Shown here one piece after another: positions 4,021-4,158 of a stretch of 32,000 bases of DNA; the stretch's first letter is position 1; each line of letters opens with the position of its first letter. The notes beneath the pieces are model-generated. The model did no database searches, was not told the DNA's origin, and saw only the letters and a list, made by a program, of their open reading frames with translations. The DNA lies in assembly GCA_049322295.1 (NCBI GenBank), contig JBMORO010000040.1, positions 33,960 to 65,959 on the forward strand, read 5' to 3'. Source of the DNA: Patescibacteria group bacterium (GTDB lineage: Bacteria; Patescibacteriota; Minisyncoccia; RBG-13-40-8-A). Both the position numbers and the translations under genes were made by a program.

Positions 4021-4158
4021 CCCCGTACTGAAACTTCGACAGCAAAATGCTGGCTATCGGAGTTTTAAGGGTTAATAATTATAGTTAAATAAACTTTATC
4101 TATCTCTGCCCCGTAGATGCGGTCGCCTCTGATGACCAGTCGAAGTTCTAGTACGGGG
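4021..4158 (-). mobile_element. Family A MITE-like element, copy 2 (138 bp) between the rplV stop and the rpsC start
   Basis: TIRs are CCCCGTACTGAAACTTCGAC (4021-4040) and GTCGAAGTTCTAGTACGGGG (4139-4158). Direct CATA repeats lie at 4017-4020 and 4159-4162. Confidence 0.7.

Follow-up and report, generated by a model that had tools for sequence, protein, structure and literature searches.

A small non-autonomous transposon found mostly on translation start codons in Patescibacteria and other uncultured bacteria, and a proposed ribosome-opened fold of its interior

An element between rplV and rpsC and its copies

All genes in the 32-kb stretch of DNA analysed here (the window) lie on the minus strand. 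Window positions 4021-4158 correspond to exactly one element of 138 bp, CCCCGTAC...GTACGGGG, located between the stop codon of rplV (4170-4168) and the start codon of rpsC (4019-4017). The ORF at 4168-4665 generated a hit on Ribosomal_L22 (rplV) in Pfam, and the ORF at 3369-4019 encodes a 216-aa S3 protein, which aligned over 100% of its length with 216-aa homologues and was identical to the S3 protein of an NCBI MAG named 'Patescibacteria group bacterium'. The window contains three copies of the element (136-140 bp), copy 1 at 340-475, copy 2 at 4021-4158 and copy 3 at 20202-20341, which share one orientation and are read here on the gene-sense (minus) strand. Copy 1 is preceded by rpsH and followed by rplF. 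Copy 3 is preceded by a small gene of unknown function that ends a pilin gene cluster, and followed by a gene with Trypsin_2 and PDZ domains, whose product was thus regarded as an HtrA-like protease. The three copies exactly occupy the start codons of the genes that follow them, rplF, rpsC and the protease gene, respectively. The gene call used here stretched the HtrA-like gene into the terminal inverted repeat (TIR) of copy 3.

The 20-nt TIR CCCCGTACYNNANYTTCGAC is found at both ends of every copy. Its pattern generated six exact matches and one internal near-match in the window, against 0.09 expected, and CCCCGTAC generated seven matches, against 0.2 expected. The copies are flanked by 4-bp direct repeats, TATG for copies 1 and 2 and TGAA for copy 3, and their gene-sense layout is TATG-[CCCC...GGGG]-TATG (copies 1 and 2) or TGAA-[CCCC...GGGG]-TGAA (copy 3). 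The group of elements was designated family A. The features of copy 2, from upstream to downstream in the mRNA sense, and the extents of copies 1 and 3 are as follows.

4168..4170, minus strand: stop codon TAA of rplV (L22), 5 nt upstream of the upstream TATG (read from the sequence)
4159..4162, minus strand: upstream TATG of the target-site duplication; its ATG (4161-4159) served rpsC as start codon before the insertion and is now that of the mini-ORF
4096..4161, minus strand: mini-ORF of 21 codons plus stop, MPRTRTSTGHQRRPHLRGRDR by translation, spanning the 5′ TIR, the hairpin remnant and the box
4139..4158, minus strand: 5′ TIR in mRNA sense, CCCCGTACTAGAACTTCGAC ('right TIR' in the sequence-only reading), paired with 4021-4040 in the predicted minimum-energy fold
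4121..4137, minus strand: decayed copy of the GC-rich hairpin, GGTCATCAGAGGCGACC (GGTC...GACC), intact with 8-9 bp in most other copies
4109..4116, minus strand: internal box CUACGGGG (CCCCGTAG on the plus strand), a third outer TIR motif, oriented like the 3′ end and thus able to pair with the 5′ end CCCCGUAG/C
4067..4108, minus strand: AT-rich core, holding TTAATAATTAT on the plus strand
4057..4065, minus strand: local partner AAACUCCGA (TCGGAGTTT on the plus strand, where it re-pairs the TTCGA part of the left TIR), able to pair with the inner 3′ TIR half, UCGAAGUUU
4021..4040, minus strand: 3′ TIR in mRNA sense, GTCGAAGTTTCAGTACGGGG ('left TIR' in the sequence-only reading), by sequence match
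4017..4020, minus strand: downstream TATG of the duplication; its ATG (4019-4017) is the start codon in use for rpsC
336..479, minus strand: copy 1 including its TATG duplications (476-479 and 336-339), between the rpsH stop codon (480-482) and the rplF start codon (338-336)
20198..20346, minus strand: copy 3 including its TGAA duplications (20342-20345 and 20198-20201), with the old ATG at 20346-20344
20202-20200, minus strand: new GTG start codon at copy 3, built from the last G of the element plus TG

A sequence-only reading of this stretch had proposed a modular layout for the element, comprising the two TIRs, a local partner, an AT-rich core, an internal box and a short hairpin. Every one of these sub-features was located at its expected place in copy 2, including the weak GGTC...GACC hairpin, which is present in a decayed form at 4121-4137, and the layout is kept in at least 20 copies elsewhere.

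Empty sites and target-site duplication

The rplV-rpsC junction of the relatives L138/L139, whose S3 is 85% identical to that of the window, carries a single TATG and no element (...AAAATCATTTTAAATTATTATGGGACAC...), and is equal to the window sequence minus CCCC...GGGG and one TATG. The same junction is also empty in L142 (S3 81% identical), and a second empty site, the counterpart of copy 1, was found between the S8 and L6 genes in L140. Comparison of the filled and empty rplV-rpsC sites shows that copy 2 is a transposon insertion accompanied by a 4-bp duplication.

Nearly all copies of the family are flanked by direct repeats, mostly TATG, with TGAA at five sites, TATGA at two, TGGAA at one and TAAG at one. 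The duplication differs between near-identical copies (TGAA in L135, TATG in L079). The element size is 124-143 bp, and the longest internal ORF is approximately 42 codons (21 in copy 2), with no transposase gene inside. All testable characters of bacterial MITEs, namely small size, TIRs, a target-site duplication demonstrated by an empty site, and dispersed copies, were found in family A. We therefore regard family A as a non-autonomous DNA transposon of approximately 124-143 bp with 20-nt TIRs and a T-initial duplication of 4-5 bp, and its mobile nature as near certain.

Other modes of movement were considered and rejected. IS200/IS605- or RAYT-type mobility was considered for the strand-specific sub-terminal hairpins and the one-way orientation, and was rejected since the flanking repeat varies with the target; the left and right repeats change together (TATG, TGAA, TATGA, TAAG) among close copies, which is at odds with REPIN/RAYT and IS200/IS605 elements, as these make no target duplication and insert beside a fixed tetranucleotide that is constant at their end. 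Site-specific recombination with a TATG crossover core was rejected on the same variation of the repeat and because the targets lack binding arms, and a palindromic target (CATATG or TTCATGAA) because the duplication is off-centre for both palindromes. Family A is not a Correia, ERIC, RPE or REPIN element, nor an IS200/605 derivative or a member of any Rfam family.

The empty sites also bear on the mini-ORF, which the sequence-only reading had described as opened by a duplicated ATG at the 5′ edge and as 20, 21 and 12 codons long in copies 1, 2 and 3. Translation confirmed these lengths. The duplicated ATG is indeed present, but it is not a designed feature; comparison with the empty site of L138/L139 identifies it as the target-site duplication. 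Both the duplicated ATG and the mini-ORF arose as by-products when the insertion hit the rpsC start codon and the target site was duplicated. Across the family, the mini-ORF is 2 (L079), 4 (both TATGA-type sites), 12, 20-25 or 42 codons long, and neither its frame nor its length nor its sequence is conserved; the start ATG carries mutations in L129, L134 and L137, and L123 has a mismatched upstream repeat. A conserved mini-ORF peptide was rejected, as the frame differs among TATG, TATGA and TGAA insertions. In seven of nine TATG-type copies, the mini-ORF ends within approximately 10 nt past the box.

Distribution of family A

Copies outside the window were collected by one scan of 185,579 species genomes and a two-TIR scan of metagenome contigs, both of which required exact TIR cores. 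The species-genome copies were from Portnoybacteria RBG_13_40_8 (at least three loci), Falkowbacteria, Saccharibacteria, Azambacteria and other Patescibacteria, and six copies were found in one MAG of 55% GC labelled Gammaproteobacteria; the remaining species-genome matches were chance matches in GC-rich genomes. The two-TIR scan of metagenome contigs generated 22 further loci, duplicates among them. Copies within a genome are just 67-93% identical, indicating that the family is not young.

Viral contigs contained no two-TIR matches, and the seven single-TIR matches in them were chance matches inside GC-rich genes. A plasmid search generated no homologues, and annotated plasmid and phage records showed no sequence match. 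A phage or plasmid origin was rejected on the absence of two-TIR viral matches and plasmid homologues in these searches. The search for an autonomous parent detected no inverted TIR pair 0.3-5 kb apart among 115 genome loci; four weak candidates in these loci lacked the GGGG tip. No transposase domains were detected in the window.

Insertion on start codons in one orientation

Approximately 29 of approximately 32 independent insertions, from Patescibacteria and other uncultured bacteria, fall precisely on a real gene's start codon. The fixed orientation relative to transcription, which had been noticed in the three window copies, was seen again throughout this larger set: three of three copies in the window, and every one of the approximately 29 start-codon insertions, face the same way relative to the gene. 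Among the first 30 copies tested, 27 had a long ORF opened by an ATG or GTG at the junction. The genes hit include rplF, rpsC, rpsL, rplB, rplT, pheS, leuS, pgk, ruvB, ruvC and tsaE as well as pspC-like genes, and the Pfam domains L20, RuvC, TsaE, PspC and NTP_transf_3 begin at residues 1-7 of junction-opened ORFs. The exceptions to the start-codon rule are a TAAG insertion inside another repeat in Saccharibacteria, and the degenerate or ambiguous copies L095 and L098.

The start-codon insertions fall into two registers. In one, the ATG lies inside the duplication, TATG being the commonest form; at the two TATGA sites, the old start codon overlapped the upstream stop codon as ATGA, and both genes remain intact. 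In the other, the duplication begins at the second base of the codon (TGAA at five sites, TGGAA at one), so that the ATG is split and the last G of the element plus TG forms a new GTG start codon. Only these two registers combine a T-initial duplication with a rebuilt start codon, and they are the expected residue of a selection filter.

L131 carries two tandem copies on one start codon, and the rpsC start codon is also occupied in L140. The L140 copy is 70% identical to copy 2, and the copy in L133, at another locus, is 77% identical. As the rpsC copy of L140 is less similar to copy 2 than that of L133 is, it is either an independent hit or an old insertion that was precisely lost in the intermediates.

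The target sequence available in these genomes was counted for comparison. TATG opens 61% of the crudely called genes, and by the same crude gene call, on which the start-site count is based, there are 75 start-codon TATGs versus 111 other non-coding TATG/CATA sites and 525 coding TATG/CATA sites. A TATG-preferring element that was purged from coding sequences would be expected on start codons in approximately 40% of cases, and in approximately 20% in a given orientation. The observed value is approximately 90%, which indicates that something beyond target preference is at work. The target sites show no extended sequence consensus around them.

Scans with exact TIR cores favour copies with preserved TIRs, a possible ascertainment bias in these counts. 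The window is an unbiased sample, and three of its three copies are on start codons; a covariance model applied with its filters off to the window and to the 20-kb Portnoybacteria-like locus L150 detected no additional copies. Intergenic copies away from start codons are almost absent, despite the 111 non-coding sites. Their rarity reflects either start-site targeting by the transposase or a bias of the exact-match search toward TIRs kept by selection. MITEs are usually described as scattered in intergenic DNA and occasionally as fused in frame into genes, and a family that is almost confined to start codons in one orientation is unusual for such elements. Neither a start-codon-specific MITE nor these TIRs were found in a literature search that included a 2024 review of prokaryotic MITEs.

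Interior modules and RNA structure

Copies 1-3 are each predicted to fold as a long hairpin closed by their own two ends, at -51 to -57 kcal/mol, with z-scores of -5.6 to -7.1, and none of 200 shuffled sequences folded as well. Every TIR pair contains a conserved A.C mismatch and a G.U wobble in the middle of the stem.

The interior was compared in an alignment of 20 CPR-type copies from other genomes, in which the CGGGG box shows hardly any variation. The GC hairpin on the inner side of the 5′ TIR, for which the sequence-only reading had suggested covariation as a check, is 95% paired, with five of eight pairs changed on both sides, and thus covaries as had been proposed. That reading had also seen competing pairings for the TIR. 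Both alternatives are kept in the alignment: the helix of the box with the 5′ end is 88% paired, and the helix of the local partner with the 3′ TIR is 86% paired and follows the two TIR subtypes. Both helices also occur in the constrained open fold (see below). The loops vary freely, and no unpaired pocket is conserved.

The wobble pairs point to the mRNA-sense strand. At one position of the partner helix, U.G occurs in 12 of 20 copies, and inspection of the hairpin sequences revealed several G.U or U.G wobbles that are valid on the sense strand only. The interior folds better in the sense than in the antisense direction (p = 0.016, a value that overstates independence as the copies are related). 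A function of the antisense strand, prompted by two C.A mismatches in copies 2 and 3, was excluded by the wobble-pair count in the 20 copies.

A scan of the window against Rfam 15 detected only a tRNA at gathering score, and the best matches of copy 2 were to unrelated families (E 1.5-8.6); a known structured RNA family was excluded on this basis. Copy 2 contains no sigma-70-type promoter consensus and no intrinsic terminator consensus. A leader or autoregulatory site of a ribosomal-protein operon was rejected, since the same junction is empty in closer relatives and the element also precedes the unrelated genes pheS, ruvC, ruvB, tsaE, pgk and leuS.

Predicted opening of the element

In the equilibrium fold, in which the TIR stem prevails, the region of the true start codon was 0.18 unpaired, and the flipped element gave the same value. 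When the 5′ TIR was held unpaired, the start region (-10 to +5) was predicted to be 0.48 unpaired in the natural element, 0.42 with a shuffled interior and 0.27 in the flipped element, and accessibility was higher in the natural than in the flipped orientation in 26 of 28 copies. The Gammaproteobacteria-labelled subfamily, the interior of which is unrelated, behaved in the same way in six of six copies. The constrained open fold consisted exactly of the box paired with the 5′ end and the partner paired with the 3′ TIR; the 5′ end and the upstream TATG were paired with the box and the TATA that follows it, and GUACGGGG-UAUG was free. On average, the closed stem was favoured over the open state by 15 kcal/mol, so that the open state would have to arise under kinetic control. 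No convincing Shine-Dalgarno sequence precedes the true start codon, the GGGG being just 1 nt from the AUG.

Copy 2 stems from one insertion event, in which the element entered ...TAA ATTAT TATG GGT... exactly at the rpsC start and TATG was duplicated. The old ATG, still in its original initiation context, is now the head of a meaningless 21-codon mini-ORF, and rpsC starts from the new ATG, 142 nt downstream. For the way in which the gene still works, the following model is proposed. In the transcript, the two repeats are predicted to pair as a stem of approximately 24 bp, the base of which would bury both ATGs. As the surroundings of the old ATG are preserved by the duplication, ribosomes would be expected to go on loading at this site, either through coupling to the upstream cistron or through the gene's own signals, and run into the 5′ TIR. 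On meeting this repeat, they would unzip the stem. In the natural orientation, the CGGGG box would then capture the 5′ end and the local partner the inner half of the 3′ repeat, both holding the element open, and ...GUACGGGG-UAUG would become single-stranded for initiation. In a flipped element, the polarity of the box would be reversed and the start codon re-buried, so that in essential genes only sense insertions with a rebuilt junction start, i.e. an ATG within the duplication or the last G of the element plus TG, would be expected to survive.

The sequence-only reading had assumed that the opening ribosome arrives from the upstream cistron. As a general rule, this does not hold: approximately half of the insertion sites have an upstream stop codon within 15 nt, and the other half have no upstream gene end there, which indicates that the opening ribosome would not in general come from the upstream cistron. 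That a ribosome melting the 5′ TIR could free the start codon is physically plausible, and the opening model would account for both the orientation and the two insertion registers, while the near absence of copies elsewhere in non-coding DNA would not be fully accounted for by selection plus opening. The ribosome-opened switch as a mechanism is given roughly even odds at most. Taken as a whole, MITE insertion on the start codon combined with interior modules opened by the ribosome is probably the best explanation of the locus, with a probability of about 55%.

Alternative explanations

A purely selfish MITE would need no effect on expression: the transposition machinery would set position and orientation by targeting start sites, the box and partner would serve as additional sites for transposase binding, and the hairpin would merely be tolerated by the downstream gene, the mini-ORF and interior being irrelevant to it. 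The box and partner are additional copies of the outer and inner TIR motifs, and in other transposons such sub-terminal repeats are commonly bound by the transposase. The absence of intergenic copies, which selection alone leaves unexplained, also fits, and the tandem copies on one start codon (L131) and the occupation of the rpsC start in two lineages have the look of hot spots. However, there is no known way for a DNA transposase to tell a start ATG from the approximately 525 coding TATG/CATA sites, and the target sites lack an extended consensus. The sense-only G.U pairs kept in the hairpin and partner are unexpected for binding sites in double-stranded DNA, and in the flipped orientation the start codon is predicted to be buried. 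We consider this explanation unlikely. Cleavage by RNase III was considered as a further way past the hairpin. The approximately 24-bp TIR stem would be cut, separating the upstream cistron and leaving the rpsC mRNA with a short unstructured leader of approximately 10-14 nt, from which it would be translated. In favour of this, the stem is a near-perfect duplex of 20-24 bp that closes right at the start codon, cleavage at MITE TIRs is documented for Correia elements, whose stems are cut by RNase III (PMC10969869), and a TATAAT-like box 7-8 nt before the ATG at several sites, e.g. L128 and L136, hints at very short leaders. A symmetric stem explains neither the orientation bias nor the conserved sense-strand modules of the interior, and the A.C mismatch and G.U wobble conserved in the middle of every TIR pair may also count against it. 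RNA processing in place of opening by a ribosome seems improbable, though cleavage may occur in addition.

The remaining two explanations give the interior a regulatory role. If the element drove the downstream gene from an outward promoter (GGGG-TATAAT after the box), only the promoter-supplying orientation would be tolerated, and a TATAAT, CATAAT or TATGAT-like hexamer indeed follows straight after the box in approximately 60% of CPR-type copies. Yet copy 2 reads GGGGCAGAGA at this position and has no sigma-70-type match, a -35 partner is absent, and most of the genes hit lie inside operons and are served by a promoter already; the motif is more readily understood as imitating the 3′ end with its TATG and pairing with the 5′ end. 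A promoter function is thus highly improbable. A regulatory RNA recruited by the host, i.e. a bistable switch responding to temperature, growth rate or a ligand and disseminated by transposition, would agree with the two mutually exclusive conserved folds and with a downstream gene set rich in ribosomal-protein genes. Against it, there is no match to an Rfam family, the freely varying loops offer no conserved unpaired pocket, the host genes are functionally unrelated, and relatives lack the element at the same sites. We regard host recruitment as very improbable indeed. Family A may also be a lineage specialised for translation start sites, by means of either a start-guided transposase, which would be new among DNA transposons, or a self-contained, ribosome-opened bistable fold; this proposal is tentative, with the odds somewhat against it.

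Comparison with known systems

Correia elements (NEMIS/CREE) of Neisseria resemble family A in being MITEs of approximately 100-155 bp with long TIRs, which are co-transcribed with their neighbours and form a long RNA stem beside genes. They have a 26-bp TIR and a TA duplication, occur beside genes in both orientations and are not known to lie exactly on start codons; family A differs in its unrelated TIR sequence and its T-initial duplication of 4-5 bp. The tips and duplication of family A (CCCC...GGGG; 4 bp, or 5 bp for TATGA) resemble those of the IS1380 family (e.g. ISEcp1) and its eukaryotic relatives, the piggyBac transposons, a group that has CC...GG tips and a 4-5 bp duplication (ISfinder family tables). 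This is a likeness to the description of the group and not to its sequences, and possible membership serves as a lead only. Rickettsia palindromic elements (RPEs) are, like family A, small palindromic mobile elements that survive in essential genes, their insertion being compatible with expression (PMC10969869). RPEs lie in frame within the coding sequence and are translated, whereas family A lies at the start codon, outside the protein; a 7-codon extension in copy 3, L130 and L132 may be an exception.

The predicted opening has analogues in translational coupling. In the coat-replicase region of phage MS2 and in ribosomal-protein operons, a start codon is likewise buried by pairing with an upstream translated segment and is freed only on passage of a ribosome; the likeness is one of mechanism alone, the family A side being predicted. 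The bringing together of flanks by a stable hairpin may be compared with phage T4 genes 38 and 60 and with the pararetrovirus shunt. Family A differs from these coupling and bypass systems in that the structure arrives ready-made on a mobile element, and in that it is the target-site duplication which gives rise to the translated segment upstream.

A family almost confined to start codons, in one orientation and in at least two phyla, would represent a new niche for a mobile element, in which either the duplication or the terminal base of the element serves to rebuild the start codon. If the opening model is true, the element would be a portable natural module that ties the translation of any gene to a preceding short translated segment. 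If the targeting is real, it would point to a new way for transposases to locate gene starts. With a bistable fold, if true, the element could occupy the starts of essential genes, such as those for ribosomal proteins, tRNA synthetases and RuvABC, and the host would survive; imprecise deletion of the element would be nearly impossible. The insertions also mislead gene callers and inflate 'intergenic' spacers in the compact ribosomal-protein operons of Patescibacteria.

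An ATG within the Family A 3′ TIR

The 3′ TIR of Family A, the 124-143 bp MITE usually found on start codons, holds a conserved ATG (AAATGTCGAA), seen in copy 3 at window 20200-20223 and also in L130 and L132, two loci from other genomes or metagenomes. In TGAA-type insertions with the AAGTTT TIR subtype, this ATG shares the reading frame of the gene downstream, and a possible N-terminal extension of 7 codons may start from it; the putative extension reads MSKFRYG in copy 3 and MSKFQYG in both L130 and L132. The mechanical ORF list begins the HtrA-like protease gene at this ATG (19003-20223). 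Where the TIR is of the more common subtype, this ATG heads the short frame ATG TCG AAA ATC TAG, whose stop lies 8 nt upstream of the true ATG.

Other repeats and RNA features of the window

A third hairpin element (GAAAAACCCAAAGCCTATATTTGT...ACAAATATAAACTTTGGGTTTTTC) directly follows the stop of the HtrA-like gene, and a promoter-like TTGACC-17-TAAAAT site is located between this element and nrdD. The region of the element folds at -50 kcal/mol (z -6.1).

18882-18999, third hairpin element, ~118 nt

The second repeat family in the window consists of palindromic arrays of TACAAAT/TACGAAT heptamers, (GG)CTACAAAAT...ATTTTGTAGAC.

7479-7644, heptamer array
7983-8059, heptamer array
24902-24978, heptamer array
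26056-26083, heptamer array
28314-28390, heptamer array
29828-29904, heptamer array

These arrays fill the tuf/rpsJ/rplC spacers and spacers among the type IV pilus genes, and a start codon (GTG at three of them) lies 3-9 nt past the end of every array. Similar ACGAAT/ATTCGT arrays occupy S10 operon gaps of L140, a relative with the ribosomal-protein operon.

A three-copy direct repeat, AT-rich-TTTTGACYGAAGGGAAYATG on the gene strand, looks like a common 5′ leader and ribosome-binding site ahead of three genes. The sole Rfam match in the window was a tRNA gene.

1063-1124, direct repeat
12005-12066, direct repeat
12543-12604, direct repeat
12651-12721, minus strand, tRNA gene (56.9 bits)

Start-codon context and variant elements in other genomes

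By crude calling in the window, L120, L124, L127, L140 and other Patescibacteria loci, ~61% of genes have T at -1 of the start codon (TATG). In a Portnoybacteria-like contig, rplO and secY are separated by a 432-nt gap, unlike the other, tight ribosomal-protein junctions of that contig; as this gap gave no match to R1, the covariance model of Family A, it may contain an insert of a different kind.

L150:15173-15606, rplO-secY gap

The 43-nt foldbacks of Paceibacterota SO_2017_LW4_36, located in non-coding DNA adjoining genes, consist solely of the two TIRs (CCCCGTACCAGAGTTTCGAC AAA GTCGAAACACGGTACAGGG), and another hairpin of similar kind comes after each of them. They resemble Family A ends reduced to a minimal or REP-like derivative.

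L015:1736-1785, foldback
L064:2059-2108, foldback
L077:404-453, foldback

A Saccharibacteria contig carries two Family A copies located off start codons and flanked by a TAAG duplication, each inside a larger duplicated unit whose edges are the palindrome AATGTTTAGCGCTAAACATT; here the element was apparently duplicated together with its host repeat.

L058:688-819, Family A copy
L058:1299-1436, Family A copy
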